The position numbers and the translations under genes are program-made. DNA of 64,000 nt from an uncultured Candidatus Saccharibacteria bacterium (lineage in GTDB: Bacteria; Patescibacteriota; Saccharimonadia; Saccharimonadales; 2-12-FULL-41-12): assembly GCA_964573095.1 (NCBI GenBank), contig CAZNIK010000001.1, positions 56,507 through 120,506 of the forward strand, in the 5' to 3' direction. Below are positions 5,423 to 32,006 of the stretch, one piece after another. Below the pieces are notes generated by a model. It worked only from the letters and a program-made list of their open reading frames with translations, was not told the origin of the DNA and did no database searches. Position 1 is the stretch's first letter. Each line of letters opens with the position of its first letter.

Positions 5423-5441
5423 GGTATAATAGGGGCACGAT

Positions 5442-8872: not shown

Positions 8873-9774
8873 AACGGTTGTTTAAAAGGAAAAAGCTGGC
8901 ACGAAGGCAAACCGGTGATTCATCTTATACACGCGGTTCAGCCTATCATTATAGTGCCCGCCGAGCCGATGTGGAGCGAAGTCTCGACAGAGGTGCCGAT
9001 AGCTTTGAGCAACCCGACCCCCAGGCGAGAGGAAAAGTTGGCACGCTGGGTATCCTTTTTGCTGGGGTAGTCATTTTCGTATGTGCGATCTATATGCTAG
9101 GGTTATCAACCGATCCAAAAATAGTAGTTCATGGGAAGCGCGACCTACTACGAAACGAGCAGGAGTACTCAAAACAAGCCAAAGCCATACTCGAAAAGTC
9201 ATTGTCTAACAGATCAAAACTTACCTTAAATACGCAGAAGATAGAAACAGAGTTAACTACGCGATTTGCGGAGCTCTCCTCGGTTGACGTCAAGACGTCA
9301 CTGATACGGCACAAACCAATAATTAACCTCACACTTTCTCAGCCGTCGGCGATTTTGAGCACTAGAAGTTCAAAATTCTTGCTCGACGAAAACGGCAGAG
9401 CATTATTTGATATCATCAAAGATGCTCCAAATTTTGATACTAGCACACTGCCGCTTATAGAGGATAAAACGGAAATACCGGTGAGACTGGGGAAGCCTGC
9501 ACTTACGAGTGCCCAAGTGAACTTTATTCATGATATTGCGCTTCAATCGGAGGCAAGGCAGCTAAAAGTAAGTTCGATGGATTTGGTTGGCGGAGGAGGG
9601 GAGTTGGATGTTCGCTACGAAGGATTACCTTACTTTGTAAAGTTTAATTTTTTCGAAGATGCCAGGAAGAGCAGTGGAACGTTCTTTGCAGCCAAGGAAC
9701 GGCTTGAGCTAGAGAACAAACCACCAACCGAATATATAGACGTTCGGATCCCAGAACGTGCCTACGTAAAGTAG
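8869..9774 (+). CDS. ftsQ: Cell division protein FtsQ/DivIB-like (POTRA domain)
   Basis: Basic cytoplasmic N-terminus, a single TM (GILFAGVVIFVCAIYML), then an extracytoplasmic POTRA-like domain. Its start overlaps the murG stop (ATGA). Confidence 0.55.
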   Translation: MKRLFKRKKLARRQTGDSSYTRGSAYHYSARRADVERSLDRGADSFEQPDPQARGKVGTLGILFAGVVIFVCAIYMLGLSTDPKIVVHGKRDLLRNEQEYSKQAKAILEKSLSNRSKLTLNTQKIETELTTRFAELSSVDVKTSLIRHKPIINLTLSQPSAILSTRSSKFLLDENGRALFDIIKDAPNFDTSTLPLIEDKTEIPVRLGKPALTSAQVNFIHDIALQSEARQLKVSSMDLVGGGGELDVRYEGLPYFVKFNFFEDARKSSGTFFAAKERLELENKPPTEYIDVRIPERAYVK

Positions 9775-10030
9775 TTCCACTTCCGCTGCCCCACTATGTT
9801 CGCAAATTGTTCGCTATACATAAACGAACTAATAATTTAAAAACTATTCAATAACTTTATAATTAGAAATTGTCAAATATTATTATAAAAAGCGGGGAAA
9901 CAGGGGATTTGTGCCAAAAAATATATAAGACGTAAAATATAGCAAAAAAGCAAGTCATGCTGTGGATAAGTCTAGTGGTATGATTATTTTTCAGACACTA
10001 GACAAGAAAGAAGCATAAAAGGACCTCAGC

Positions 10031-10327
10031 ATGCAGGATGTAAGCAAAAGACAGTTAGCGATGTACGAGCCAATGGGCGACACTAGAACAGCAAACGGCA
10101 ATAACGGAACGCCAAAAAGTAGAATCCCCCGCTCCAGGGAGGTACTAGAAGACATCTACAGACCATTATATATAAGTCGCAAAATATACATTGTGCGACG
10201 TTATGTCTATAATTCAATGTGGGTTCACCCACTGTCTTTTGCAACTTTGTTTTTTGGTTTGTTTTATGGCTTTGCTTTGATTATGCATCTTCTACTTTAC
10301 CCTGCCGCCAGCTACCTAAATATATAG
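10031..10327 (+). CDS. Hypothetical small membrane protein
   Basis: 98-aa ORF with a C-terminal hydrophobic helix, sitting in an AT-rich intergenic region. No homology was recognised; it may be spurious. Confidence 0.2.
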   Translation: MQDVSKRQLAMYEPMGDTRTANGNNGTPKSRIPRSREVLEDIYRPLYISRKIYIVRRYVYNSMWVHPLSFATLFFGLFYGFALIMHLLLYPAASYLNI

Positions 10328-18280: not shown

Positions 18281-19663
18281 TTATTGTACCTCTTTTGTAG
18301 GCGAATGTCCGTGTCGATGGGCGGTGTGCTTTTCGATAAACCAAAGCTGGACCGGTGTGCCTTCAAAGCCATACTCTTCTCTCATGCGTCGCTCCATGTG
18401 TCGTTTGTAGCTCCAATGCAGAAATTTTGTATGGGAGCCAAACACCTTGAAGCTCGGAGTTGGGTTATCGTTTTCTTGAGTAATATAGTTCAGCTTTGGC
18501 GTGCGGTTCTTTAGGCCTGCGGGTGGGTGGCGGTCGGTAACCCGGCGGAGCCAGCGATTGAGCTCGGGGGTTTTAATGCGAATGCTGCGTTGATTCATGA
18601 TGTTCAGCACAATCTCAAATATTTTTGTGACATTTTGACCGGTGACGCTACTCGTAAAAATCAACGGTGCCCAAGGCACGAAGTCATAGTTGTTCGCGAT
18701 GGTAGGCGCAATGGCATCTCGAGTATAGGGGTTTTTGTCGGTAAGACTATCCCATTTGCTCACAACAAGTGCCAGCCCCTTGCCTGCCTCCTTCACAAGT
18801 CCTGCTATCTTTTGGTCCAGCTGCACATTGAGCTCGTTTACGTCCATCAGCAATAAACAGACATCTGCCTGTTCAATAGCTGCAAGCGAACGAATTACGC
18901 TAAATTTTTCAACCCCTCTTTCTATTTTTCCCGACCGACGTATACCGGCGGTATCGAGAAGTTCAACTTCCCGACCTTGATACTTCACAATCACCCGGTT
19001 TACATCTCGAGTAGTACCGGCCCTATCTGCAACGATGGCTTGCTGTTTTTTTGCGAGGGCATTAAAAAGCGCCGATTTGCCGACGTTTGGTCGACCAAGT
19101 ATTGCAATGCGGATTCGATCGTCATCTTCAACAATGGACGCTTGTGACAGAATGCGTGATAGATACTCGAGTATGTCATCAATTCCCTTTGACTGGGTGA
19201 CAGAAGTCGGGAAAATCGGTTTGATTCCAAGCTTTTGGAGGTGATCAAAAGGCTTGCCCCTCGCTTTGTCGGCCTTGTTTCCTACAAGAAGCACCGGCTT
19301 TTTTGAGCGAAGTGCCATTTTTGCAACTCGGCGGTCTTCTTCGTTGATTTGCAAGTACGCCTCAACCATGACAATGATCACGTCTGCACCGTCGACGGCC
19401 TGGGCTATTTGTTCTTGAATAGTAAATTCAAAATCGTCTTCGGGGTTTTTCATGCCGGCGGTGTCAACAATCCAGAAGTCGCGCGGTTTGCTATCAGTAA
19501 GTTCTGCGGGAAGACTCGCCTTTGCCATAATGCTGTCCCGGGTTGTCCCGGGTTCGTCAGCAATAATCGCTTCTCTTCGCTCTAATATCGCATTGAACAA
19601 GCTTGACTTGCCAACATTCGCCCGTCCGACGATAGCCACAATTGGAACTTTATTTTTTGCCAT
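18281..19663 (-). CDS. der: Ribosome-biogenesis GTPase Der (EngA)
   Basis: 460 aa with two tandem GTPase domains (GRANVGKSSLFN and GRPNVGKSALFN P-loops; DTAG motifs) and a C-terminal KH-like domain. Confidence 0.9.
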   Translation of the reverse strand: MAKNKVPIVAIVGRANVGKSSLFNAILERREAIIADEPGTTRDSIMAKASLPAELTDSKPRDFWIVDTAGMKNPEDDFEFTIQEQIAQAVDGADVIIVMVEAYLQINEEDRRVAKMALRSKKPVLLVGNKADKARGKPFDHLQKLGIKPIFPTSVTQSKGIDDILEYLSRILSQASIVEDDDRIRIAILGRPNVGKSALFNALAKKQQAIVADRAGTTRDVNRVIVKYQGREVELLDTAGIRRSGKIERGVEKFSVIRSLAAIEQADVCLLLMDVNELNVQLDQKIAGLVKEAGKGLALVVSKWDSLTDKNPYTRDAIAPTIANNYDFVPWAPLIFTSSVTGQNVTKIFEIVLNIMNQRSIRIKTPELNRWLRRVTDRHPPAGLKNRTPKLNYITQENDNPTPSFKVFGSHTKFLHWSYKRHMERRMREEYGFEGTPVQLWFIEKHTAHRHGHSPTKEVQ

Positions 19664-19715
19664 ACTACTGTAGTAATTATAGCATCAATCATTTAATCTT
19701 GCAAGATTTTACAGA

Positions 19716-20375
19716 TTAGAGGTTACGATACTGTCCACTTTTCAATGTACCGAGTGAGATGTTACTTACCTGCGTTCTGTGAAGATCGACAACTTGATAG
19801 CCGAGAGCTGAGAACGTGCGTCGAATTTGACGGTTCCTTCCCTCTGTAAGAGTGAGCTGAAGTCGCGTGCCAGAAGAATCTATTTTTTGGACCGCGAATA
19901 TGCTCGGCCCATCATCAAGCTGGACGCCTCGATTGCAAATCATTTTTTGGTCAGCTGGGTTAAGCGGCTTATCGAGCTTTACGAGATACACCTTCTGCTT
20001 TTGATAGCGGGGATGCGAAAGTCTGTTTGCGAGTTGCCCATCGTTTGTGAGCAAGAGCAGCCCCGACGTGTCTTTGTCTAGCCTACCAACCGGCTTTAGG
20101 TGCGACAGACTAGCTGGTAGCAGCTCGTAAATGGTTTTGTTGCCCTGTCGCCGTCTGCTGCACACATAGCCAGTGGGTTTGTTAAAAACAATTGTCTGAT
20201 GAGGTTTGTCGGCGTGCACTAGCTTGCCATCCAGGTGTACAATGTCGCCTTCGTGAACTATTTGCCCAAGGGAAGGTTTTGATTGGTTTACCCGTACCCG
20301 GCCTTGCTCTATGGCCGTATCCGCGGCTCTTCTGGATAAATCTGTGGCACGGGCGATAAATGTATTTAAGCGCAT
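19716..20375 (-). CDS. RsuA/RluB-family pseudouridine synthase (S4 domain + catalytic domain)
   Basis: 219 aa; N-terminal S4-like RLNTFIARA; catalytic VGRLDKDTSGLLLLTNDG motif. Confidence 0.75.
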   Translation of the reverse strand: MRLNTFIARATDLSRRAADTAIEQGRVRVNQSKPSLGQIVHEGDIVHLDGKLVHADKPHQTIVFNKPTGYVCSRRRQGNKTIYELLPASLSHLKPVGRLDKDTSGLLLLTNDGQLANRLSHPRYQKQKVYLVKLDKPLNPADQKMICNRGVQLDDGPSIFAVQKIDSSGTRLQLTLTEGRNRQIRRTFSALGYQVVDLHRTQVSNISLGTLKSGQYRNL

Positions 20376-20412
20376 CGGTTCTTGTGTGGTGTTGGACTAA
20401 TTCGCGGTAGTT

Positions 20413-21663
20413 CTACAGTGCTATTTTGCTGTGATCGTCGACTGGAGCCTCCGGTGGCGGGGTGTTGCTTGGTTCGACAACGGTTTGCGTTGCTGGGTCG
20501 ACGACGTTGCCGACTCCCGCTTCTGCCTCTGCCATTGCCTTAAGGTCGGGAGTCTTGGTAAGGTCGTTGATTGGTTCGATGACTTTCTTTTTTGGAGAAT
20601 CGTCGAGGGGGTTTTCTGGTTTGTGGGGTTCGGCTTGGGTAGGTGGTGTGGGGCCCTCCTCTTTTACTGGGGGTGGTGTCTGGGTTGGGCTCACGACACC
20701 AAGACTTTCAGCTCCGTTAATAATGCTTGGGTTTGGGGTTGCTTGCTTTGGTTCTTCCTCTGTGTTTGTGGCTTTGGCTTCTGCAACTTCCTCTTGTTGA
20801 AGTGCCTCGGCGAGACTTGGGCCGACGACACTAACGGGCTTGGGATTTTCTGTTGCTACCGGCGCGGCAGGTGGTGGTGTCGTTTCTTCGCTCGGTGGAG
20901 TTGGTAATTCAACTTTGATTGCCGGTTCGGTTGCTTCAACGGGTGGAGCGGGTGTGGGGGTCGCCGGTGCAGCCGGAGCTGTTGCAGCTACTGACTGAGT
21001 TTCTTCGGCGCTGACGGGTTGTGCGGGCGGAGTCTCAATATTCGGTGCTGTGCCAACTGGTGGGTCAAGCTCAACCGGTGTTGTTGTTGGTTCTGCGCCG
21101 ACAGCTTCTTTGGTTTTTGGCTCGGTCACTGCTTGGGCTTGGTCTTGCTGTGGGGCTGTGTTTTCGGTCGTTGCCACTACGGGATTGGTAGGGTTGACTT
21201 GCTCTGTAGTCGCTGCAGCTTGGGGTGTCGCCGGTTCAGTTGTTGGATCGACGGTGGTAGCTCCATCGACTCCAGTAATTGGGGCGTCACCAGAATTGTC
21301 TTGCAGGACATCTTTTACAGCTTTTGCGACATCTTCGAGTGTAACCTGTGATTTTACAAGGTAACGATCGGCGCCGAGTTTATCAGCCCGTGCTTTATCT
21401 TCTGCCTGGGAAAGAGCCGTCATCATAATTACTTTGGTGTTTTTTGTTTCTGGCGCGTTTCTAAGGATGTCAAGCATATCAAAGCCGCTAATTCTTGGCA
21501 TCATCACGTCAGAAATGATGAGATCTGGCTTTTCTTTTACGGCAAGCGCCAAGGCTTCTTCTCCGTCTTTGGCGGCTACAATAGTGTGCCCTTCAGCAAG
21601 CAAGCGGGCGCCATAAATTTCCCGAAGGTTGTTGTCGTCCTCAACGAGCATTATTTTGGCCAT
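20413..21663 (-). CDS. Response regulator receiver domain protein with ~290-aa Pro/Thr/Ala/Glu-rich disordered C-terminal tail
   Basis: The N-terminal 120 aa is a CheY-like REC domain (MLVEDD...DLIISDVMMP...KVIMMTAL...K). The rest is low-complexity PT/E-rich sequence with no output domain. It lies downstream of the kinase in the same operon. Confidence 0.7.
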   Translation of the reverse strand: MAKIMLVEDDNNLREIYGARLLAEGHTIVAAKDGEEALALAVKEKPDLIISDVMMPRISGFDMLDILRNAPETKNTKVIMMTALSQAEDKARADKLGADRYLVKSQVTLEDVAKAVKDVLQDNSGDAPITGVDGATTVDPTTEPATPQAAATTEQVNPTNPVVATTENTAPQQDQAQAVTEPKTKEAVGAEPTTTPVELDPPVGTAPNIETPPAQPVSAEETQSVAATAPAAPATPTPAPPVEATEPAIKVELPTPPSEETTPPPAAPVATENPKPVSVVGPSLAEALQQEEVAEAKATNTEEEPKQATPNPSIINGAESLGVVSPTQTPPPVKEEGPTPPTQAEPHKPENPLDDSPKKKVIEPINDLTKTPDLKAMAEAEAGVGNVVDPATQTVVEPSNTPPPEAPVDDHSKIAL

Positions 21664-21735
21664 ATTGTATACCTATCCCCTGTTTCTCGTATTCATTTTA
21701 TAACGAAAGTATATCACGTTTATGCTTCGTTCTTA

Positions 21736-23070
21736 CTAGATCAAGCTCGATGCTTGCTTTTCTTTCATTTGAAGTGTTTGGGCGCGTTGTGAAGTAAGTC
21801 TGGGGAGGTTAATAAAAAAAGTGCTGCCTTTGCCCAGCTCGCTTTCGGCCCAGATTGTGCCGTTATAGAGTTCGACGATCTTTCGACAGATAAACAGGCC
21901 AAGGCCCGTTCCGCCGATGGATCTTGTGGCTGAGTTGTCAACTCGGTAGAACTTTTGAAATAAATGAGGTATATCACTCTCTGGTATACCCGCACCCGTA
22001 TCTCTAATGCTGATTTGGACCACTGTGTCATTGCCCGTGATTCCGAGCGATACTTTCCCGCTATCAGTGTATTTTGTTGCGTTATCAAAAAGATTTGTAA
22101 TTACCTCTCTCATGCGGTCGGGGTCAACCAACACGAAATACAGTGGTTGAATCGTTTTGCCTTTGATGCTCGCATCGATAACGCTGTTGTCTCCCATGGG
22201 GTTGGAGTTTGTAACAAATTCTATGCCTAAACCTTTCTTTTCTGCGCCAAATCGCAAGTCTTCAGCAAGCTGCTCAACAAAGCTCCCCATTTCAGTTACG
22301 ACTGGATGACTTGTAAGCCGCCCGTCCTCTGCTTTTGCGCTCGTCAGAAGATCCTGGAACAGTTTGCCAAGATGCTGAGTGCTCGCGTGAGCTTTTTCCA
22401 AATATTCGCGGGCTCGGGCATCGATATTGCTCACTTTGTCATTGAGCGCCAACGCCAGGTAGCCTTCAATTGCGGCAACTGGTGTTCTCATTTCATGGCT
22501 CGCGGTGCTGATAAACTCTGCCCGTTGCTCTTCTTCGGAGCGTTCCTTACTTACGTCGCGAAACACTGCAATCGAACCTACTAATTCGTTATTTTTTGGG
22601 GCAACGACTGGCGAAATAACCAGCGAGATAAAGACGTGCTTATTTGCCCGATCTACGAGCGGAACTGTTTGGCTAAAACGCCCCCTGGTCGTAAGTACTG
22701 TTGTAAAAGGATGATCATTGTCTGAAACGGTAATATTATTTTTCTCATCGCTCAAAATACGAAGCACTGTCTTTGCATCAAAGCCCAGGGCTTCATCTAT
22801 TGGCCAGCCGGTCATTTCAGAGGCAGCTTTATTAAACAGGGTGATGGTTCCCTTCATGTCGGTCACGATCACACCGTCGCTTAGTGACTCTATGAGCGTC
22901 TCGGATTGGAGATCCTTGCTTTTGGCAACGTTTTTTACTAGTGTTTTATCGCTCGCCTTGCCTTCGCCCTTTTTTAGACCTCGCACAACCAACAGCACGC
23001 GAACTGATGCTGTAATTATTATCGCAACAATAACAATAGTGATAATGACTGTCAGCATCACCGAACCCAA
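21736..23070 (-). CDS. Sensor histidine kinase (TM-PAS-HisKA-HATPase_c)
   Basis: N-terminal TM helix, a PAS-like segment, H-box (ISTASHEMRTPVAAIEGY), then N/G1/G2 boxes (GTGLGLFICRKIVELYNGTIWAESELGKGSTF). Confidence 0.8.
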   Translation of the reverse strand: MGSVMLTVIITIVIVAIIITASVRVLLVVRGLKKGEGKASDKTLVKNVAKSKDLQSETLIESLSDGVIVTDMKGTITLFNKAASEMTGWPIDEALGFDAKTVLRILSDEKNNITVSDNDHPFTTVLTTRGRFSQTVPLVDRANKHVFISLVISPVVAPKNNELVGSIAVFRDVSKERSEEEQRAEFISTASHEMRTPVAAIEGYLALALNDKVSNIDARAREYLEKAHASTQHLGKLFQDLLTSAKAEDGRLTSHPVVTEMGSFVEQLAEDLRFGAEKKGLGIEFVTNSNPMGDNSVIDASIKGKTIQPLYFVLVDPDRMREVITNLFDNATKYTDSGKVSLGITGNDTVVQISIRDTGAGIPESDIPHLFQKFYRVDNSATRSIGGTGLGLFICRKIVELYNGTIWAESELGKGSTFFINLPRLTSQRAQTLQMKEKQASSLI

Positions 23071-23213
23071 GTACTGCTTTGATTGAGCTTATGCATATGC
23101 AGTGGATTATAGGCCATCCAGGGGTCGATCAGCTAGTGCTTTTCGTCCTGCGTGGACATTCTACCTCTGTTATGCTAGACTCTCATATGCATTCCTCGTT
23201 CACGGTCTGCCAA

Positions 23214-23232
23214 ACGGCCTCATCGTCTAACG
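23214..23232 (+). repeat. 19-nt duplicate of the 5' end of tRNA-Glu (acceptor + D-arm: ACGGCCTCATCGTCTAACG)
   Basis: Exact match to 23359-23377, which is the 5' end of the intact tRNA-Glu, but not followed by the rest of a tRNA. Confidence 0.6.
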
Positions 23233-23260
23233 TGAGAACTGCCAGTGGCAGTTTGCAAGG
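23232..23260 (+). repeat. Hairpin element copy 1 (GTGAG-AACTGCC-AGT-GGCAGTT-TGCAAGG)
   Basis: 29 nt, 24/29 identical to 23508-23536. The two stem differences (A:T to C:G and C:G to G:C) are compensatory, so the 7-bp stem is preserved in both copies. Confidence 0.55.
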
Positions 23261-23360
23261 CCGCAGGTGCGGCGGCACCGAGGAGGGCCCGACGGATTTT
23301 TTAGCAAAAAAATACCGGTGAGTCGATTCCAATCGAACCTTAAATAAGCGCAACATTCAC

Positions 23361-23435
23361 GGCCTCATCGTCTAACGGTTAGGACACCAGGTTCTCATCC
23401 TGGCAATCGGGGTTCGATTCCCCGTGAGGTCACCA
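23361..23435 (+). tRNA. tRNA-Glu (anticodon CUC)
   Basis: 75 nt by manual cloverleaf: acceptor GGCCTCA/TGAGGTC, anticodon stem CCAGG/CCTGG with loop TTCTCAT (CTC), T-arm CGGGG-TTCGATT-CCCCG, and an encoded CCA. Confidence 0.85.
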
Positions 23436-23443
23436 CGAAAAAT

Positions 23444-23469
23444 AGCTCAGCAGATGCTGGGCTTTTTTC
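23444..23469 (+). terminator. Hairpin + T6 run immediately after tRNA-Glu (putative intrinsic terminator)
   Basis: AGCTCAGCAGATGCTGGGC forms an imperfect stem and is followed by TTTTTT at 23463-23468. Confidence 0.4.
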
Positions 23470-23507
23470 GTGTTCAACGAGGATTGTGCACCGATTGCGG
23501 CAATCGG

Positions 23508-23536
23508 GTGAGCAGTGCCGGTGGCACTGTGCAAGG
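23508..23536 (+). repeat. Hairpin element copy 2 (GTGAG-CAGTGCC-GGT-GGCACTG-TGCAAGG)
   Basis: Homologue of 23232-23260 with covarying stem positions. It is preceded by a 17-nt palindrome CCGATTGCGGCAATCGG (23491-23507). Confidence 0.55.
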
Positions 23537-23594
23537 GAGTCAACTCTTGTAAACTGGTTTGCAAAGACGTTGCGACGGGCTCGCCGAAGGTGAG

Positions 23595-23616
23595 TCGATT
23601 CCCCGTGAGGTCACCA
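23595..23616 (+). repeat. 22-nt duplicate of the 3' end of tRNA-Glu (T-loop/acceptor/CCA: TCGATTCCCCGTGAGGTCACCA), att-like
   Basis: Exact match to 23414-23435. It is preceded by GGTGAGTCGATTCC, a 14-mer also present at 23317-23330 just upstream of the intact tRNA. Confidence 0.6.
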
Positions 23617-23671
23617 AAGTAGAAATGTTTACTTATACACGTGAAGTTGTTATGAGTTACAATATTAGAAT

Positions 23672-24886
23672 ATGGCAAATAAAAGTCTAGGTGCAGCAAA
23701 GAATGCAAAAAACGATGAGTTTTATACGCAGTTTTCTGATATCCAAAAAGAAATTGAAGCATACCTAGAATTCGATCCAGACACCTTTCGTGGGAAGGTG
23801 GTGTATTCCAATTGCGATGACCCCTTTGAAAGTAATTTCTTTCGTTACTTTGCACTTAATTTTAACCGTTTGGGCTTAAAAAAACTGATTGCCACAAGCT
23901 ATAAACCGTCACCTATTGCAAACACGCAACTTGGATTATTTGGTGACGATATTACAATTCAGTCTGAAAAAGGCAGGCCAAATGTAACAGCAAATAAGTT
24001 CATTATTAATGAAGTGCATGATATGGATGGAGACGGTGCTTTCAACATCTCGGACATTGCTAAACAACTTAAGGCTAATAAAAATAACGAATGGGGGCCG
24101 CTCAAAGGTGATGGTGATTTTCGTAGTGAAGAATGCTTAGAGCTTCTAGAACAGTCTGACATCGTGGTTACGAATCCTCCATTTAGTCTTTTTCGTGAAT
24201 ACGTAGCACAGCTCATGGAGCACAAAAAGAAATTTTTAATTATAGGAAACATGAATGCAGTTACTTATAAGGAAATTTTTCCTTTGATCAAAGCCAATAA
24301 AATATGGTTGGGAGTGACGCGACAAGGCACTGGATCAATGTGGTTTCAGGTAAGCCAAAACATGCCAGAGAAAACAGGTCAAAGAGTGGATCAAAACGGC
24401 ATACGATACCAAACAATCGGCAATTCGGCGTGGTTTACTAACCTTGATCACGGGCGACGTCATGAAAAACTATCTTTAATGACGACTGATGATGTTGTCA
24501 AGTTTGGAACAAAAAAAGACCTCGTTAAATATGACAATTACGACGCAATTGAAATATCCCTTGTAAAGTATATCCCGAAGGATTACAGGGGCGTAATGGG
24601 TGTACCGATTACTTTTCTAGGAAAGTATAATCCCGAACAATTTGAAATTCTCGGTGCTACACAAAGAGGTTGCCATGATGAGGTTCCTGATACCAGAAAA
24701 TATGATGACTATTGGGAAGTAAGACAAGATGGCACGAATACTGGATCATCTGGCGGCAAAACTAACGAAAACGCAAATCTAGTTGGTAATGATGGTAAGA
24801 AAAACTACTTTATTAACAAGGATGGGCGGATTGTACAATCTGCATATCAACGAGTATTTATTAGACACAGGAAGGAAGCGACATGA
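23672..24886 (+). CDS. DNA N6-adenine methyltransferase, EcoRI-methylase-like family (NPPF catalytic motif)
   Basis: 404 aa. Catalytic motif [10 protein letters not shown] is present. The N-terminal block NDEFYTQ...[22 protein letters not shown]...[11 protein letters not shown] matches my memory of the M.EcoRI family; the family assignment is from recall, not a search. Visibly lower GC than flanking genes. Confidence 0.75.
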
Positions 24887-26046
24887 TAACCACACTAAAA
24901 ACAGATATTATAATACGAGAAATCGTTGAAGGATTTGAATACAACGAACTTGAAGGCAAAGGTCTATTTGGTCTTTCAGGTAAGCTAACCATCCAGCCTG
25001 AATATCAAAGAAATTATATTTATGCTGATGGCAAAAAAGACGTTGCAGTAATAGAAAGTATTTTGAAAGGCTATCCTATTGGTGTTCTATACTTCAACAA
25101 GATAGATGATGATAAATACGAAGTACTAGACGGCCAACAGCGAATAACAAGTATCGGGCGTTTTATTAAAGGTAAATTTGCAGTTAAAGACGTAAATGGC
25201 CACGAACAATACTATAGTGGCATGTCAGAAGAACAGCGTAAGTTGATCCTAGATAAAGAACTACTTATATACATTTGCGAAGGTGAAGAACAGGAAATGA
25301 TGAAGTGGTTTGAAACCATTAACATCGCTGGCGTACCTTTGAAATTGCAAGAAATAAGAAATGCCGTTTACCACGGACCTTTCGTTAATAAAGCAAAAGA
25401 GATTTTCAGCAACAGTCAGGATGCCAATGTTCAAAAATGGAGCACCTATATTGCGGGTGAAGTTAAGCGTCAGGACTTTCTCGAAACAGCATTAGATTGG
25501 GTAAGTAACGGCAATATAGAAGCCTACATGAGCAATCACCGCAATGATGACAATATCGATGAACTTAAAACCCACTTCGACAAAGTTATAGATTGGGTCT
25601 CTTATACATTCACGGACGTACATAGTGAAATGCGAGGGCTTGAATGGGATCGTCTCTATAAAGAATATGGCTCTAGTTCATACGATCCTAAAAAAATCGC
25701 AAGCAAAGTTAAAGAACTTTATACAAGCTATGAAGTGCGTAGGAAGAAAGGTATTTTCGAGTACATTCTTAGCGGTATGGATGATCCGTCTTTGCTCGAG
25801 ATACGGATATTTGAACCTTCAACTATCAAGACAGCCTATGCACAACAAACGGCTAAAGCTGAAGAAGAAGGAGTGTCGAACTGTCCTATTTGTGCTTCAG
25901 GAAGCAACAACAATAAAGACCGAATTTATAAATTATCGGAAATGGATGCGGATCATGTAACTGCATGGAGTAATGGCGGTGTGACCGACATAAGTAACTG
26001 CGAGATGCTGTGCAGTACTCATAATCGCGCAAAAGGCAATAGATAG
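24883..26046 (+). CDS. DUF262 (ParB-like nuclease, DGQQR motif) + C-terminal HNH endonuclease; GmrSD/SspE/BrxU-like
   Basis: 387 aa. The N-terminus [11 protein letters not shown]...[14 protein letters not shown] is the DUF262/ParB-N signature. The C-terminus CPIC...[32 protein letters not shown] is an HNH (His-Me finger) motif. The start ATG overlaps the MTase stop (ATGA) and is preceded by a GAAGGAAG Shine-Dalgarno sequence. Confidence 0.75.
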
Positions 26047-26062
26047 AAGATAGCTCTAAATC

Positions 26063-26923
26063 ATGAATTTAAAGAAAATATATAATAGCACCACCACCCT
26101 GGAAGAATGGCTCTCATATAAAGGTTCCACTGAAGATGGCGAGAGTTCTTATTTTGAGAACAAGGAAGTTGGCATTGATTTGAACACGACAACTCCAAGC
26201 ACAGTTGGCGACTTCAAGCTTCGCATCGCAAAAGAAATGTCTGCATTTGCTAATACTGATTCAGGGATTATAGCACTCGGAATTGATAGCAAGCTGCAAG
26301 TTAATAATCTGACTGCTCGTCTAGAGGATTGGCTCGATAAAAATATTCGAGATATGCTGGAGCCGCAACTATCAGGTATCGCTCTTAAAACATGCACAGA
26401 TTCTGCTGGCAACGAGTTTGTCTTGATGTATGTGCCCAAGGGCAATGTTATTCCGTACAGGGCGAGTTCCGTGAAAAGCTGTGAAAAAGAAAAAAAGAAT
26501 TTGCGGGAATATTTCCAGAGAACTGGTACCAATAGCGTACCCATACCTATGCCCATAGTTCGGAGCCTGTATCTATCAAATGAACGCGCAACAGACGTGT
26601 CAGCTCGCGTAAAGCCAGTCGCAGTCCATCTAGGTGATGAGGAGGAGCAGCCATATATCGAGTTGGGTATAGAAATTAAGCCCGACCAGACGCGCCTTAT
26701 TAACGAATACTACCTCAAAGCAAGTGTTCTTCTCCTTGATGTAAACTTGAAGCCTCTGAATAAGGTAGCGATTGACCTCGTACCATTTGGACCAAATAGT
26801 CCACAACGACCTATAATTCCACCCGATAGCATTTATCCTATGAATGAATTCGGTACGGTAAGCGTAACAAGGATGAATATTAACTTTTCGGATAAGTCGA
26901 GTGATTATCACTCGGGGTATTGA
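26063..26923 (+). CDS. AlbA_2 / Schlafen-like (putative DNA-binding 'divergent AAA') domain protein with uncharacterised C-terminal domain
   Basis: The N-terminal 150 aa fits the AlbA_2 pattern (YFENKEV...EMSAFANTDSGIIALGIDSK...NEFVLMYVPKGNVIPYRA...YFQRTG). The C-terminal ~130 aa was not recognised. The gene is AT-rich like the two preceding genes. Confidence 0.5.
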   Translation: MNLKKIYNSTTTLEEWLSYKGSTEDGESSYFENKEVGIDLNTTTPSTVGDFKLRIAKEMSAFANTDSGIIALGIDSKLQVNNLTARLEDWLDKNIRDMLEPQLSGIALKTCTDSAGNEFVLMYVPKGNVIPYRASSVKSCEKEKKNLREYFQRTGTNSVPIPMPIVRSLYLSNERATDVSARVKPVAVHLGDEEEQPYIELGIEIKPDQTRLINEYYLKASVLLLDVNLKPLNKVAIDLVPFGPNSPQRPIIPPDSIYPMNEFGTVSVTRMNINFSDKSSDYHSGY

Positions 26924-27075
26924 TAATACTAACAAAATCGGTGCCCAAGCCAGTTATTATAATATATTTATAAGGTTTGGACGATTTATCGCAACTACCT
27001 CATTATTTTAAGCAATAATACCCCAAAGCGAATATGCTTTTCTCTTTCTTATTTGTTTTCCTCCACCTATAATGA

Positions 27076-29184
27076 GTGCCAAGAAGAAAGCGAAAATATT
27101 TAGTGGTACCAGAAATAGATGAGGCTATCGAACAAGCTGTTGCGGAGGGTGTTCCTCCGCAAAACATTGCCAGTAACCTAATTGCCAAGGGTTGGCCCCC
27201 AAAGCTTGTGAATGAGGTAGTGCATTCGTGGCTGCTGTATCATGGGCGCACCTATAGCAAAACTGGATTCAAGACATGGGTTTCGAGCTATAAACAAAAG
27301 GCCCTTATCCCGGCGCTGATCGTGATTTTTATCAGCGTTATTACGTCTTCGATTGCGTTGCTTCGTCCCTGGCCGACAAAGATAATGGTCGATTCGGCGT
27401 TTGGTAATGTTCCGGCGCCGGACTGGATTGGCGACTACACCAAGCCGGCCACTCTCATCCTTGTGACGTCGTTAATGACGGTTGCGATTTTTGTTTCTGG
27501 CGCGCTGATCGGTTCTTTTCGAGATTACATGGTTTTTAAGTTGAGCTTTCGTTTGAACCGTGATGTCAAGGAGGAGTCGCTGCGGCACATTCTGCACCTG
27601 CCGCTCTACCAGAAGGGTCGTCTAAGCAAAGGAGATTACATCCATCGCCAGAACACCCTTACCAATAGTCTGTCGGAATATGTGCTGGGTACCACAGCCG
27701 CGATTGCACAGTCGATAATCATGGTTTTTGGGATACTGCTCGTTATGCTGAGTTTTAGTGTTCGATTGACTGTGATAAGCATCATAATACTGCCCGTTCT
27801 ATTTATTCTTACAAAGGTCTACGGTCCGCGCCTTAGTCAGATTTCTCGGAAGCTTACAAAAAATTCGAGCTATGCAACCTCGATTATTACCGAGTCAGTC
27901 GATAACGCTGAAACGGTTCAAGCGTATAGTCTTGAGGAAAAACAGATAAAAAAAGCTAACCAGCTATGGCTTCAAAGCTATGACTACTCTCGGAGTGGTT
28001 TGCTCTGGGGCAGAACCTATCGTTTCACGAATGGACTTCTTATTGTGCTGGCAACAGCGACGGTGATGTATTTTGGTGGCACTGCTGCGCTGAATCGAGA
28101 AATATCTCTTGGTGAACTACTGATATTTATGACGTACATGGGCTACTTGCTTGTGCCCGTGCAAACCTTGGCTAGTCAGATTGCTGCGCGGAGCCAGAGA
28201 AAGGCGGATGTCGAAAGGGTGTATGAGGTGCTCAGCGACTACCAAGGGGTTGAAAATCTACGCGCCGATAAGCATTTTCCGATCAGCAAGGGGCGGATTG
28301 AACTTCAAAATGTGAGCTATTCTTATGGGGATAGCATGGTGCTGAACAATGTGAGCTTGACTGTAGAAGCTGGTCAGAAGATTGGCATTATTGGGCCGAG
28401 CGGCAGCGGCAAAAGCACACTACTAAAGCTCCTGCCGCTATTTCTCGAACCGACGATGGGAAAAATCATGATTGATGGAATTGACGTGCAAACAGTTTCG
28501 CTTCGAGAACTTAGGCGCGCGATTGCGTGGGTCAGCCAGACGCCCCAGCTCTTTAACGAAAGTATTGGCGACAACTTACTGGATAGTGACCCATCAAGAC
28601 ATGTTTCGCACCAAGAAGTTGAGCGAGCCATAGATGTTGCTGATATGAAGGACTTTGTCGTAAAACTGCCGTCCAATATTAATACCGTCGCGGGAGAGAG
28701 TGGGAATAATTTGAGCGGCGGGCAGCGTCAGCGTGTTTCGCTTGCCCGAGGACTGTTAAAAAACTCTCCAATTATTTGCATGGACGAACCAACTTCGGCG
28801 CTTGATGGTAAAAGCGAAAAGAAAATTCATGATTCAATTCTCCAACTCGTTGAAGGTAAAACTGTGATTTTAGTTACGCATCACCAGTCTTTGCTAAGCC
28901 TCATGGACGTAGTGTACGTCATGGAAAATGGAACGTTGGTGAATGTTGAGAGTCTTGGGGGGCTCGATAACTATCTTCTGAAGATGAATGATATGGAGGC
29001 GAAGGATATGAAAAAACAAGCGGAGCTTGAGGAGGCTCGACTGGCCGAGCAAATTCTAAATGAACAGAACCGAAAAAGGCTAGAAGAACTTGAAGCCGAC
29101 AACGAAGCCCTACAGCAAAAGGCTGATTTCCGGTCAACATCCTCCCCTTCTTCGGATGACGTGACGATTTTTATCAATCACTGA
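27076..29184 (+). CDS. ABC transporter, fused permease/ATP-binding exporter (type I ABC exporter) with N- and C-terminal extensions
   Basis: 702 aa: a ~60-aa soluble N-terminus, a 6-TM domain, then an NBD with Walker A GPSGSGKST, signature LSGGQRQRVSLARGLL and Walker B ICMDEPTSALD, followed by a C-terminal coiled-coil tail. Confidence 0.8.
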   Translation: MPRRKRKYLVVPEIDEAIEQAVAEGVPPQNIASNLIAKGWPPKLVNEVVHSWLLYHGRTYSKTGFKTWVSSYKQKALIPALIVIFISVITSSIALLRPWPTKIMVDSAFGNVPAPDWIGDYTKPATLILVTSLMTVAIFVSGALIGSFRDYMVFKLSFRLNRDVKEESLRHILHLPLYQKGRLSKGDYIHRQNTLTNSLSEYVLGTTAAIAQSIIMVFGILLVMLSFSVRLTVISIIILPVLFILTKVYGPRLSQISRKLTKNSSYATSIITESVDNAETVQAYSLEEKQIKKANQLWLQSYDYSRSGLLWGRTYRFTNGLLIVLATATVMYFGGTAALNREISLGELLIFMTYMGYLLVPVQTLASQIAARSQRKADVERVYEVLSDYQGVENLRADKHFPISKGRIELQNVSYSYGDSMVLNNVSLTVEAGQKIGIIGPSGSGKSTLLKLLPLFLEPTMGKIMIDGIDVQTVSLRELRRAIAWVSQTPQLFNESIGDNLLDSDPSRHVSHQEVERAIDVADMKDFVVKLPSNINTVAGESGNNLSGGQRQRVSLARGLLKNSPIICMDEPTSALDGKSEKKIHDSILQLVEGKTVILVTHHQSLLSLMDVVYVMENGTLVNVESLGGLDNYLLKMNDMEAKDMKKQAELEEARLAEQILNEQNRKRLEELEADNEALQQKADFRSTSSPSSDDVTIFINH

Positions 29185-29198
29185 TGTCTTAAGACAGG

Positions 29199-29750
29199 CT
29201 AGACTTCGAGTTCGCCAATGCCTGGCTCGCCTGGTGCAGATTCGTCACCAGAGCCTGGCATTTGACCTATTCCTGGATCGTCGTAGTCGCCTCCAGCGCC
29301 CGCGCCAGCATAATCGACCCCTCCGGCCGCCGGGGCTTCCCCGACGGGTGCAGGTGGCGCAATTGGATCGATGGTACCCGCAACAGGAGTTGTGGGAGTG
29401 ACCACCGTTTGGCTTTCTGTGCCTACAACTGGGCTTGTTGTGGCAGTGGTTTCTGGAACTGGCAGATTGTTTTGTAGTGGCTGAACAGCCTCCGATGTTT
29501 CTGTGTTGTCGGCCGCGGTTTCAACGCTTTCTGGTGTGCTAACAGTGGGCGTTTCTTCAATGACTGGCAAAGGTTGCTCGGTGTTTACCGTCTCAACTTG
29601 GGCGCCTACTGGCTCCACTACTTGACCTGCTTGTTGGCTGGCGATTGGTACGAGCGTTTCTTCGTAGGCTTGTTGGGCTTGATTATAGTCACTGGTGATC
29701 CCAGTATCTTGTTTTTGTTGCGTACTGTCGTCTTGTGAAGAGTCGTCCAT
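29199..29750 (-). CDS. Acidic Pro/Thr/Glu-rich low-complexity protein
   Basis: 183-aa ORF, compositionally biased (PT-rich, many D/E), with no catalytic motifs. Its coding status is uncertain. Confidence 0.35.
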   Translation of the reverse strand: MDDSSQDDSTQQKQDTGITSDYNQAQQAYEETLVPIASQQAGQVVEPVGAQVETVNTEQPLPVIEETPTVSTPESVETAADNTETSEAVQPLQNNLPVPETTATTSPVVGTESQTVVTPTTPVAGTIDPIAPPAPVGEAPAAGGVDYAGAGAGGDYDDPGIGQMPGSGDESAPGEPGIGELEV

Positions 29751-29880
29751 TTGATACCCTTTATTTTACGTGATAATTATGGTTGCCACTATATATGCGG
29801 GCTATAGCTTTCGTCAATTAAGAATAGTATGAACTCCTAGGACATCGAGCTTGGGTTTGTGGTGCCTAGATGGCTAATGG

Positions 29881-30318
29881 CTACTGCAAGCCGGGGACGT
29901 ATTCGTGAATACTGCCGTACTCTATGTGGTGTTGTGGCGGGTTATTGATTGCCAAGAGCGCTGCTTTGATGGTTGGACTATGTGAGACTGCGACTACCGC
30001 ATCGAGGTCTTGAACTCGCCCAACACAAAGGTCTTCGAGAAGGGTGTTTGTAAGGTGTGCGAGAGCTGCGCTGTCGTCCGAGCGTGGCGAGAGTACATCG
30101 TTGTAGCATATTTCGTCTACCCCGAGTGTTTTGGCAATAATCTTTGAGGTTTCGTCGGCGCGAATAGTGCAAGAAGAAAAGATGGCAACTTTTCCCAAAT
30201 TTTCAGCCTTTAGCCAATCGGCTGCCTGTTGGGCTTGGTTTCTGCCAACTTCAATCAGTGGCCCGTCCTCTTTCGGTCCATACTCAAAAGCACCGTGTCG
30301 CACTAAAAAAGTTCTCAT
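29881..30318 (-). CDS. Histidine phosphatase family protein (SixA/phosphoglycerate-mutase-like)
   Basis: 145 aa; RHG motif at the N-terminus (LVRHGAFEY), a later SSCTIRADETSKI segment and a C-terminal VSHSP His. Confidence 0.55.
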   Translation of the reverse strand: MRTFLVRHGAFEYGPKEDGPLIEVGRNQAQQAADWLKAENLGKVAIFSSCTIRADETSKIIAKTLGVDEICYNDVLSPRSDDSAALAHLTNTLLEDLCVGRVQDLDAVVAVSHSPTIKAALLAINNPPQHHIEYGSIHEYVPGLQ

Positions 30319-30362
30319 GATAGTATCCTAGTTTGGCCAATGAGGATTTGCAAGCACTAGAG

Positions 30363-31649
30363 TTACTTTATTGTTATTGCCGCCAACTCATCCCAGCAGG
30401 TCGTATATCTTGGGCTTCTGGTAAGGTGTTTTGGCTCCCACGTTCGGCTAAGGTCCTCACTCGCAGCGTGTAGTAATCGTCGCCCATATTTATCGTTTAG
30501 TTTGTCCACGGCTTTCATTCGCCGCACCTCTTTGTCAAACTGGGCGGGATTTTTTGCGCCAAAGAGATCTGGTTGAAACGAGTCGTTTTTGACAAGATCG
30601 CTCAATAAAACTCCCCCTCGATGATAAAGGGCGCCTGGTTTGTGAAAAGAACTGAGCATTCTATTTGCGAGGGCAGTGAGCGCGCCTGTGTCGGCGGTAG
30701 CTTGGGCCAAAACTATTTCTTTTGTCCATTTTTGATAGCCGGGCTTATGGCGATTTGAAGACAGAAAAACCTGTAGCTTTCTTGCAACCAGGCCTTGGGT
30801 TCTGAGTCTATGTGCGGCACGCGCAACAAAACTTGCCAAGGCACTTTCTACGACGTGGAGCTGGTTTGTGTCTTCGCCGAACGTTCTTGTGGCGCTAATG
30901 CTCCGTTGCCCGACCTTAATTCGTTCGAGGGGGATACACGATTGCCCTCGAAGCTCTCGCACAAGGCGTTCGCCAATAATTGAACCAAATAATTTATGTC
31001 CTTGGGTGGGTGTGAGGTTCCGCAAGTCGTGTGCTGACGATAAACCAACTGCCCTTAGGCGTGGTGCCATTCGCCAGCCAATCCCCCAGATATCTTCAAG
31101 CGATGTCTGCTCGAGGTAGTGATCATGCTCGTTTTTGGAACTATCAATGTATAAAACGCCTTGCAAGACGTGGCTCTTCTTTGCGCGCTCACCTGCGAGT
31201 TTGGCGAGTGTTTTTGAGGTGGCGATGCCGATACTAACGGAGACGCCAGTCCATTTTTGAATTTTGGATCGCACGGCTTTTCCCCACTCTTCGAGGTCTG
31301 GTATTGATAGTTGCGAAATATCTAAAAACGACTCGTCGATCGAGTATACCTCCACGCGAGGGGTTATGCTGGTAAGTATTTCGGTAATGCGACGGGAGAT
31401 ATCACCGTACAATTCGAAGTTGGCACTAAAGCGCACCACCTGGTTTTCGTTCAACACTCGTTTGTATTTGAATGCCGGGGCTCCCATCGGAATTCCAAGC
31501 TGTTTCGCTTTGTTGCTTCTGGCTACAACGCAACCGTCGCCACTGCTAAGAACAACCACCGCCCTGCCCGCAAGATCTGGTCGAAAGATTTGTTCGCACG
31601 ACACAAAAAAGTTATTACAGTCAATCAGCGCAAATAGAGGTTGTTTCAT
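30363..31649 (-). CDS. umuC: Y-family translesion DNA polymerase (UmuC/DinB-like)
   Basis: The N-terminus LIDCNNFFVSCEQIFRPDLAGRAVVVLSSGDGCVVARSNKAKQLGIPMGAP is canonical for the UmuC/Pol IV palm domain. The start was set at MKQPLFAL, overlapping the umuD stop by 4 nt. Confidence 0.8.
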   Translation of the reverse strand: MKQPLFALIDCNNFFVSCEQIFRPDLAGRAVVVLSSGDGCVVARSNKAKQLGIPMGAPAFKYKRVLNENQVVRFSANFELYGDISRRITEILTSITPRVEVYSIDESFLDISQLSIPDLEEWGKAVRSKIQKWTGVSVSIGIATSKTLAKLAGERAKKSHVLQGVLYIDSSKNEHDHYLEQTSLEDIWGIGWRMAPRLRAVGLSSAHDLRNLTPTQGHKLFGSIIGERLVRELRGQSCIPLERIKVGQRSISATRTFGEDTNQLHVVESALASFVARAAHRLRTQGLVARKLQVFLSSNRHKPGYQKWTKEIVLAQATADTGALTALANRMLSSFHKPGALYHRGGVLLSDLVKNDSFQPDLFGAKNPAQFDKEVRRMKAVDKLNDKYGRRLLHAASEDLSRTWEPKHLTRSPRYTTCWDELAAITIK

Positions 31650-31987
31650 AGTTGCTTCATCCGATGAATAACAGAGGTTACAGTGCCCCATAGTTCTTTT
31701 TTTAGGGCATCTGCGGCCAGATTACTCATGACGAATTGGTCGTGATCCCACCAAACCACCACGTCGTTTTTAGTTGGCTCAACTGCTCGATCTATCACTA
31801 CAATGTCACCAGAAAATATGCCCAGCTCTTTCCATTCATTGCTGTCAAGGCGCATCAAATAAGTTGCTGAAGGATGTGCGATAAGTAGGCGTGAGAGGTC
31901 GAGCTGTCGGCTTTGTGAGCCAATTGCCGCATTTGGAAACCCAGCGTGTGTTGAAACACCGAGATCTCTAAGTGCCTCTTCGTCCAT
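31646..31987 (-). CDS. umuD: UmuD-like LexA/S24 peptidase-domain protein
   Basis: 113 aa; AGFPNAA (cleavage-site region), LDLSRLLIAHPSATYLMRLDSNEW (Ser nucleophile region) and GIFSGDIVVIDR, consistent with the S24 fold; lies upstream of umuC. Confidence 0.65.
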   Translation of the reverse strand: MDEEALRDLGVSTHAGFPNAAIGSQSRQLDLSRLLIAHPSATYLMRLDSNEWKELGIFSGDIVVIDRAVEPTKNDVVVWWDHDQFVMSNLAADALKKELWGTVTSVIHRMKQL

Positions 31988-32006
31988 AGAATTAGTATAG
32001 TTCTTT

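Follow-up and report, generated by a model that had tools for sequence, protein, structure and literature searches.

What does a compact cassette of AT-rich genes beside a tRNA gene encode in a Saccharibacteria genome: one composite defense system, or a familiar kind of module with an unrelated neighbor? The question is raised by a 64-kb stretch of DNA (the window; coordinates without a prefix refer to it) from contig CAZNIK010000001.1 of an uncultured Candidatus Saccharibacteria bacterium (assembly GCA_964573095.1). Three co-directional genes lie there just downstream of a tRNA-Glu gene, and a first-pass annotation had flagged them as a candidate non-canonical restriction or defense module. 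We refer to the DNA methyltransferase (MTase) gene and its protein as M, to the DUF262-HNH nuclease as R and to the AlbA_2 open reading frame (ORF) as ORF3. Our analysis indicates that the segment 23618-~26996 is, with high probability, a Type II-like two-gene restriction-modification (R-M) module together with an unrelated gene remnant. The segment and its genes are as follows.

23618-~26996, + strand: inserted segment of ~3.38 kb, delimited by blastn and junction alignment against the sister contig L110
23672-24886, + strand: MTase ORF (M), 404 amino acids (aa), from the ORF list
24883-26046, + strand: nuclease ORF (R), 387 aa, from the ORF list
26063-26923, + strand: AlbA_2 ORF (ORF3), 286 aa, from the ORF list

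The stop codon of M and the start codon of R share an ATGA (sequence ...CATGATAAC) and 16 nucleotides (nt) separate R from ORF3, so that the close packing described by the first-pass annotation was borne out to the exact coordinate. Its domain calls also held: EcoRI_methylase with NPPF, DUF262 with DGQQR plus HNH, and AlbA_2 were all matched in a Pfam profile search. The AT-richness that it had judged by eye was confirmed by calculation, with a GC content of 0.393 for the cassette compared with 0.466 +/- 0.014 in windows of equal size elsewhere (z = -5.1; as low in 0 of 1078). GC at third codon positions (GC3) was 0.34-0.35 in M and R, 0.42 in ORF3 and 0.48-0.50 in the flanking kinase and ABC transporter genes. 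The composition of the cassette is foreign. No terminator was predicted between M, R and ORF3, and a promoter scan returned 10 sites compared with 9.7 in shuffled controls, i.e. no excess.

M and R form an obligate, mobile pair

A search with the R family returned at least 8000 scored candidates, all with E < 1e-5 and nearly all listed at exactly 387 aa, and a scan of one genome per species returned at least 571 R relatives. The best 80 of these were examined together with a locus on a 3.4-Mb contig (L081), giving 81 genome loci. On the viral side, an MTase-led search provided 80 loci from IMG/VR contigs (L111-L190), 75 of which were assessable.

Examination of the genome loci revealed M directly upstream of R on the same strand in 78 of 81, that is, in every one of the 78 that could be assessed; in the remaining three, R starts no more than 202 nt from a contig end. 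The hosts included Saccharibacteria, Parcubacteria and other Patescibacteria, Bacteroidales and Flavobacterium (Bacteroidota), Clostridia, Chloroflexota, Treponema (Spirochaetota), Desulfocapsa (Desulfobacterota), SAR324 and an archaeon (a Woesearchaeota metagenome-assembled genome). The distance from the M stop to the R start was -23 to +14 nt in 63 of 74 complete pairs, and the identical 4-nt ATGA overlap was present in 29 of the 74. The pairwise identities of M and R co-varied across the 74 M-R loci (Mantel r = 0.51, P = 0.001). The pair was also found on mobile DNA, namely a 9-kb Moraxella osloensis plasmid, Enterococcus faecium megaplasmids, an Arthrobacter plasmid and the Flavobacterium phage vB_FspS_laban6-1. 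Taken together, these data define M-R as an obligate, mobile and horizontally spread pair.

No solitary R was detected in the 81 genome loci, nor among the plasmid, phage or close-relative loci examined. On the viral contigs M was accompanied by R in 47 of 75 cases, including R proteins only 33-40% identical to that of the window, and stood without an R homolog within 3.5 kb in the other 28. Classical R-M logic holds that the nuclease kills its host if methylation is lacking, and that MTases on their own do no harm or benefit phages. The asymmetry between solitary M and solitary R therefore matches the expectation for a nuclease that is lethal without methylation, and the M-only viral contigs would fit phage-borne orphan MTases used against the M-R family.

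Public records (H1-H17, e.g. AP031478.1, NC_048834.1 and NZ_CP142416.1) label R as 'DUF262 domain-containing protein', 'hypothetical protein' or 'HNH endonuclease'; the label 'restriction endonuclease' is never used. In the plasmid and phage records the neighboring gene is labeled 'adenine-specific methyltransferase EcoRI family protein'. For so common a gene this leaves a gap in annotation, though PADLOC classes R as a Type II restriction endonuclease (REase). Some R homologs carry the label 'McrA' in some sources.

In one close relative, a 63-aa HTH_17/MerR-like gene (L106:6627-6818; PADLOC 'mad1', 2.5e-12) ends 1 nt before the M start and may encode a controller (C) protein. No equivalent ORF was present in the window at 23618-23671.

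M is an EcoRI-family methyltransferase

Analysis of M revealed a strong full-length match to Pfam EcoRI_methylase (PF13651; 5.4e-129, 431 bits), with the catalytic NPPF at aa 168-171 (nt 24173-24184), and a match to the PADLOC model MTase_II PDLC03297 (4.9e-111; profile positions 7-294 of 332). M has the fold and motif of an EcoRI-family N6-adenine DNA methyltransferase and is predicted to have the corresponding activity. The PF13651 match and the NPPF motif are what M has in common with M.EcoRI. Compared with that enzyme, M (404 aa) has insertions totaling ~50 aa when aligned with the profile, and its partner is unrelated to R.EcoRI, which is a PD-(D/E)xK enzyme. Across the 74 M-R loci the most variable regions of M were aa 81-140, 221-240 and 341-404, and the length of M ranged from 345 to 460 aa, whereas R almost always had 387 aa. 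A search of solved structures by sequence gave nothing significant for M.

To infer the recognition sequence, palindrome avoidance was surveyed in 83 host loci plus the window. All palindromes were mildly depleted (GGCC, CTAG, GATC and CATG; CTCGAG, GTCGAC and others) and none stood out; the listing of the most depleted words did not include GAATTC or AATT, for which no special depletion was seen.

R combines a DUF262 domain with an intact HNH active site

R matched Pfam GmrSD_N/DUF262 (3.5e-21) and, at its C-terminus, HNH (PF01844; 5.4e-7); Pfam gave no PF07510/DUF1524 match. Its parts are arranged as follows.

~24988-25371, + strand: DUF262/ParB-like N-domain (Pfam GmrSD_N)
24994-25011, + strand: QPEYQR, aa 38-43
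25129-25143, + strand: DGQQR, aa 83-87
between the DUF262 domain and the HNH, + strand: helical middle region
~25882-26043, + strand: zinc-type HNH, with CxxC at 25882-25893, D-H at 25951-25956, CxxxC at 25999-26013 and H-N at 26020-26025

When R was aligned with 30-32 homologs from many phyla, ~145 columns were invariant, among them QPEYQR, DGQQR, D357-H358, N372, H380-N381 and Cys334, Cys337, Cys373 and Cys377. The REase active site of R is intact, with both the HNH residues and the cysteines invariant, and the four cysteines would fit a zinc-stabilized HNH, as expected. R matched the PADLOC model REase_II PDLC03418 from end to end (1.5e-87; protein residues 8-386, profile positions 7-371 of 372). 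The PADLOC R-M profiles are presumably derived from REBASE reference sets; the literature searched gave no name for the characterized enzyme behind PDLC03418. Partial matches to the PADLOC models NsnA (3.7e-33) and PD-T4-2_A (1.7e-17) covered only about aa 32-240 (aa 33-237 for NsnA). Assignment of R as Menshen NsnA was considered and rejected: as with PD-T4-2_A, only the DUF262 domain is in common, the REase_II model fits far better, and no NsnB/NsnC-like or PD-T4-2_B-like partners adjoin R, whose neighbors are M and ORF3.

The DGQQR motif of GmrSD and BrxU has been assigned to binding or hydrolysis of nucleoside triphosphates (NTPs) (PMC4619093; PMC12707154), and by analogy its conservation suggests that this role is kept in R. 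An AlphaFold model of R (pLDDT 73.5) gave only weak Foldseek matches (E > 0.04), to CTP-binding ParB N-domains, PadC, KorB, SspE and the Gme HNH nuclease; these predicted similarities are in agreement with Pfam and add no independent evidence. Sequence and profile searches of the PDB with R returned nothing significant, the best being a marginal match to BrxU (7p9k) over the DGQQR segment only (E = 0.26 and 0.09), and no structure has been solved for any member of the R family. A look-up of the exact protein sequence of R from the window found no record.

ORF3 is a truncated gene, probably the remnant of another module

ORF3 matched Pfam SLFN_AlbA_2 (1.2e-10; 42.4 bits compared with a gathering cutoff of 25.3) and, over its N-terminus, a PADLOC pAgo model (1.7e-7). 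Two parts can be distinguished.

~26141-26545, + strand: AlbA_2 domain, aa 27-161 (Pfam)
26831-26923, + strand: read-through tail, the last 30 codons, unrelated to the family and running to the first stop

The AlbA_2 domain is intact and keeps E27/E32/K34 and the GDFKL motif. The family consisted of 30 substantial relatives (at least 45% identity) and one short match at 12% query coverage; those named by their source were Patescibacteria-type soil bins. Relatives are normally 363-396 aa long: apart from one 223-aa fragment, all 29 other substantial members (at least 223 aa) exceeded 360 aa. ORF3 aligns only to family residues 1-256, and DNA homology stops at nt ~26830. The conserved ~120-aa C-terminal domain of the family (motif FACDGLPLKEDRRLLIFD...W..C.VV) was absent from ORF3 and, by tblastn, from the whole window. 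ORF3 is a 3'-truncated Schlafen/AlbA_2 gene remnant, and the unknown C-terminal half ascribed to it by the first-pass annotation is not a domain but the product of truncation and read-through.

A model of the full-length family protein (pLDDT 79) has two beta-rich domains after a Schlafen-like N-domain. Its top Foldseek matches were the N-domains of SLFN14, SLFN13, SLFN12, SLFN11 and SLFN5 and the SAMD9 tRNase domain (E = 1e-3 to 1e-2, hence weak, with probability ~1), and the profile matches support a Schlafen-like assignment. ORF3 thus shares the AlbA_2 domain and, as modeled, the fold of Schlafen/AlbA_2 proteins such as SLFN11-14 (N-domains), the SAMD9 tRNase and the Schlafen-like N-domains fused to some pAgos. 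Its small family differs from them by the addition of the two beta-rich domains and by operonic association with MmeI-like enzymes, and the window copy differs by its truncation. This removes the last strand of domain 2 (a beta-sandwich) and all of domain 3, which holds the invariant residues T309, A312, C313, G315, P317, R323, W346 and C350.

Full-length relatives of ORF3 start at, or overlap, the stop codon of an MmeI-like Type IIG R-M fusion in four contexts (L083/84, L100/101, L102-104 and L105). The MmeI-like partners are 992-1071 aa long (PADLOC REase_MTase_IIG, 2.5e-119), and in three of the four contexts the AlbA_2 gene is followed by one for a DUF2779 protein with a Cas4-like N-terminus.

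L105:525-6286, L102:4789-10623, L083:3023-9235 and L100:2945-7143: operons of an MmeI-like enzyme and an AlbA_2 protein, with or without a DUF2779 protein

The MmeI-like partners are orthologous (54-76% identity), so the contexts represent one inherited operon and not four independent associations; the AlbA_2 protein is more conserved (70-80%). Two further relatives lie beside an Eco47II-type R with a C5-MTase and beside a Type III R-M system, and four contexts have large serine recombinases within ~7 kb, at ~3 kb or less in three of them. PADLOC has no models for the full-length AlbA_2 or DUF2779 proteins of this operon, and we found no description of an AlbA_2 association with MmeI-like Type IIG operons. 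Compared with the flagged triplet, the Saccharibacteria operon of MmeI-like enzyme and AlbA_2 protein, with or without DUF2779, is the stronger candidate for a composite system not yet described. ORF3 homologs were found at none of the 81 genome loci and none of the 80 viral loci. Because ORF3 is truncated, deviates in GC3, is absent from M-R loci and has its relatives in the MmeI-like operon, we read it as the remnant of another module, brought beside M-R by recombination at a hotspot.

Might the truncated protein nevertheless still act alone next to the R-M pair, as a Schlafen-like RNase, an abortive-infection effector or a nucleic-acid binder, making the locus a small defense islet? The intact AlbA_2 domain with its conserved motifs, a frame open for 286 codons, the likeness of the family model to the N-domains of Schlafen 11/12/13/14 and to the SAMD9 tRNase, and the presence of defense genes in the ORF3 position of close relatives would all be in keeping with such activity. 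We nonetheless regard it as unlikely, given the loss of the last domain-2 strand and of a whole domain with invariant residues, the I154T substitution, the length of nearly all other family members (>360 aa) and the absence of MmeI-like and DUF2779 partners from the window.

The genomic behavior of M-R points to a probable Type II and not a Type IV system

Comparison with orthodox Type II R-M systems revealed extensive agreement. As in those systems, M and R are separate, adjacent, co-inherited and translationally coupled; the pair is mobile on plasmids and phages, R is never solitary while M sometimes is, and both proteins match curated PADLOC Type II profiles. The NPPF motif of N6-methyladenine (m6A) MTases and the HNH core with CxxC...CxxxC zinc ligands are shared with Type II systems that use HNH enzymes. 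Type II enzymes with an HNH (beta-beta-alpha-Me) fold include KpnI, Hpy99I and PacI, and to our knowledge a ParB-like DUF262 domain of NTPase type is not a feature of the classical ones. R differs in carrying this domain, and by analogy its cleavage may be nucleotide-dependent, which would be atypical of Type II enzymes, whose sequence-specific cleavage needs only Mg2+. By gene organization and genomic behavior, M-R is a Type II R-M system in every respect tested.

R also resembles GmrSD, BrxU and SspE, with which it shares an N-terminal DUF262 domain containing invariant QR and DGQQR, a C-terminal His-Me finger nuclease and a family often found in defense islands. These published DUF262 nucleases are modification-dependent or modification-sensing, with DUF262 as the sensor of modified DNA (PMC12065111). 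As the first-pass annotation had seen, the pairing of a DUF262-HNH nuclease and a cognate MTase does not fit that published picture.

We therefore weighed the alternative that R is a GmrSD-like Type IV modification-dependent enzyme and that M has another role, such as marking or anti-restriction, and found it quite improbable. The DUF262 domain with its invariant DGQQR, the partial NsnA and PD-T4-2_A matches and the 'McrA' labels point toward Type IV, but the remainder of the protein does not: R ends in a PF01844 HNH where GmrSD, BrxU and SspE have PF07510/DUF1524, it is 387 aa long compared with ~590-730 aa for BrxU and GmrSD, and its resemblance to BrxU is marginal, confined to the DGQQR segment. 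Type IV enzymes neither require nor accompany a cognate MTase, whereas R is tied to M at 78 of 78 loci, usually with translational coupling and with co-divergence. Of the GmrSD/Type IV hallmarks, R thus has DUF262 and DGQQR and lacks DUF1524 and independence from an MTase. Moreover, an R that cut DNA methylated by its own neighbor would kill the host. At L087-L089 the pair adjoins a genuine full-length GmrSD, and R and GmrSD are therefore not redundant. By its linkage to M, R would be modification-blocked and not modification-dependent.

Genes downstream of R change between close relatives

In close relatives, with R ~90% identical to that of the window, the M-R overlap was kept and another defense gene lay 1-7 nt downstream of R. 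This was a Thoeris cluster (ThsB/ThsA) in L085/L086 (L085:8171-10017), a full-length 727-aa GmrSD matching PF07510 in L087-L089 (L087:8172-10355) and a DUF4268 protein (the PADLOC candidate PDC-S11) in L106/L107 (L106:9166-10125). With the truncated AlbA_2 gene of the window, four Saccharibacteria contexts each have a different defense gene 1-16 nt after the R stop. The variable cargo behind such tight junctions suggests that cassettes have been exchanged repeatedly at the 3' end of the R gene. Among 64 more distant loci, a given Pfam family occurred downstream of R in two at most and the neighbors were mostly housekeeping genes; a general 'defense slot' after R was rejected, as it held among the four closest relatives only.

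We give almost no credence to the idea that the MTase, the DUF262-HNH nuclease and the AlbA_2 protein make up a single non-canonical defense system of three components: the three genes are co-directional, tightly packed, free of predicted terminators and contained in one indel relative to the sister contig, and ORF3-family genes tend to adjoin R-M systems, but the M-R loci lack ORF3 homologs, relatives with ~90%-identical R have four different downstream genes, no family recurs downstream of R at more than two of the 64 distant loci, and ORF3 lacks its ~120-aa C-terminal domain, differs in composition from M and R and belongs to a family whose usual partner is an MmeI-like enzyme. The first-pass annotation had itself named non-recurrence of the triplet in other genomes as grounds for abandoning the undescribed architecture.

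The cassette is a single indel relative to a sister contig

The boundaries of the cassette were defined against a sister contig, L110 (GCA_041906505.1), found through P0152, a 97%-identical ortholog of the flanking ABC transporter. L110 has the same gene order as the window (response regulator, histidine kinase, tRNA-Glu, ABC transporter), with only 538 nt between the kinase and transporter genes, and represents an empty site without the cassette. Analysis by blastn aligned window 19131-23232 with L110 3-4111 (86.5% identity), 23361-23617 with 4095-4350 (97.7%) and 27025-32000 with 4398-9364 (85.6%), and base-level alignment placed the right junction near 26996. In place of the cassette, L110 has ~20-47 nt, which include a terminator-like hairpin. 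Because L110 has the empty site, the 3.38-kb segment 23618-~26996 is a single indel relative to it, whether it arrived in one event or several.

Junction alignment found no direct repeats flanking the segment. Consistent with the first-pass annotation, the ORF list and Pfam showed no integrase or transposase within 23618-26996. A 16-nt inverted pair (23481-23496 and 26936-26951) was considered as the cassette termini and rejected, as its left arm lies within sequence common to the empty-site contig. The cassette was horizontally acquired and adjoins a tRNA gene, without an integrase of its own. Of the earlier proposal of a restriction or defense cargo island, the foreign insert beside a tRNA gene stands; novelty of the M-R pair does not, given the PADLOC MTase_II and REase_II matches to both proteins.

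The tRNA-Glu gene carries older scars

The tRNA-Glu gene and its surroundings contain the following features.

23361-23435, + strand: tRNA-Glu (anticodon CUC), by ARAGORN; Rfam tRNA, 60.9 bits
23444-23463, + strand: terminator-like hairpin after tRNA-Glu, by terminator scan
23595-23616, + strand: exact 22-nt copy of the tRNA 3' end (old att-like scar); two matches in the window, 0 expected by chance
23214-23232, + strand: 19-nt copy of the tRNA 5' end, a direct repeat with 23359-23377
23233-23360, + strand: separate 128-nt insertion between the 19-nt repeats, present in the window only and absent from L110; not part of the cassette

The cassette starts directly after the 22-nt copy. The tRNA 22-mer has only two copies in the window, both upstream of the cassette, and no third. 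The cassette-free L110 also has the 22-nt copy, together with the 160 nt that separate it from the tRNA; the copy is therefore an older scar and not an att site of the cassette. The integration scars reported at this tRNA are thus real (the 22-nt and 19-nt copies), but they predate the cassette and do not bracket it. An integrase-borne island targeted to the tRNA was rejected on the same grounds and for want of an integrase.

The 182 nt after tRNA-Glu (23436-23617, corresponding to L110 4170-4350) consist of the terminator hairpin, a ~130-nt spacer and the 22-nt tRNA-3' copy. The tRNA and these 182 nt are 97.7% identical between the window and L110, whereas the flanking coding genes are only ~86% identical, which suggests selection on this segment or recent exchange. 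The scar gave no Rfam match and had a fold z-score of -1.7. The 128-nt insertion shares with it a ~35-nt core (GTGAG.A.TGCC.GTGGCA.T.TGCAAGG) and the motif GGTGAGTCGATTCC, and their core hairpins are one compensatory pair apart (CTGCC...GGCAG compared with GTGCC...GGCAC). The insertion is possibly a small element with tRNA-Glu as its target, either mobile or derived from recombination.

Two other features of the window stood out in composition. The response regulator at 20413-21663 (- strand) has a receiver domain at aa 4-113 followed by a ~300-aa tail rich in Pro, Thr, Ala and Glu and without a Pfam domain; the gene coincides with a local GC peak of 0.53 and strong AT skew and is kept in L110 (418 aa). 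A second, milder GC dip (0.40-0.42) at 8869-10327 covers two ORFs (301 and 98 aa) without a Pfam match, directly downstream of a MurG-like glycosyltransferase (7709-8872).

Discussion

The explanation that we favor, a two-gene R-M module with a passenger remnant, suggests the following mode of action. M would N6-methylate adenine in a specific site and protect host DNA; we infer this protection because of the obligate linkage and the asymmetry between solitary MTases and solitary nucleases. R, translationally coupled to M, would recognize unmethylated DNA and cut it through its zinc-stabilized HNH. The DUF262 domain with DGQQR probably binds NTP and controls DNA engagement or activation, by analogy and because DGQQR is invariant and GmrSD, BrxU and SspE provide a precedent. 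The broad host range of the pair, its carriage by plasmids and phages and its foreign composition are as they would be for a selfish unit that spreads horizontally. ORF3 is probably inactive and would contribute nothing.

Several observations weigh against this explanation. The mean pairwise identity across the 74 loci was 72% for R compared with 56% for M; Type II pairs usually show the reverse, with the MTase the more conserved of the two. The M-only viral contigs could harbor a different, unrecognized nuclease. The literature searched contained no paper on a DUF262-HNH nuclease paired with an EcoRI-family MTase and no named, characterized enzyme. The precedent of modification-dependent DUF262 nucleases also counts against a modification-blocked R, whose blockage by methylation we infer from gene linkage only. 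For ORF3, the retained part keeps all family-invariant residues but one (I154T), and residual function is possible.

It is also conceivable, although doubtful, that the M-R enzymes are a mechanistically distinct class now filed under 'Type II'. In such a class, an NTP-binding ParB-like domain would gate the HNH or load it onto unmethylated DNA, and the sensor of GmrSD, BrxU and SspE would be used in the opposite, modification-blocked sense.

For the genome in the window the consequence is modest: at a hotspot beside a tRNA gene, a Saccharibacteria genome gained a mobile R-M module along with a fragment of another gene. The wider significance lies with the family. M-coupled DUF262-HNH nucleases are widespread (at least 571 species-level genomes and at least 8000 protein clusters, as well as plasmids and phages) yet are annotated as 'DUF262' only, and in the literature searched the family appears biochemically uncharacterized. 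By every genomic criterion, this very common and conserved pair acts like a classical modification-blocked R-M system, whereas the literature treats DUF262 nucleases as modification-dependent. If R is indeed modification-blocked, ParB-like NTPase domains would also serve conventional restriction.

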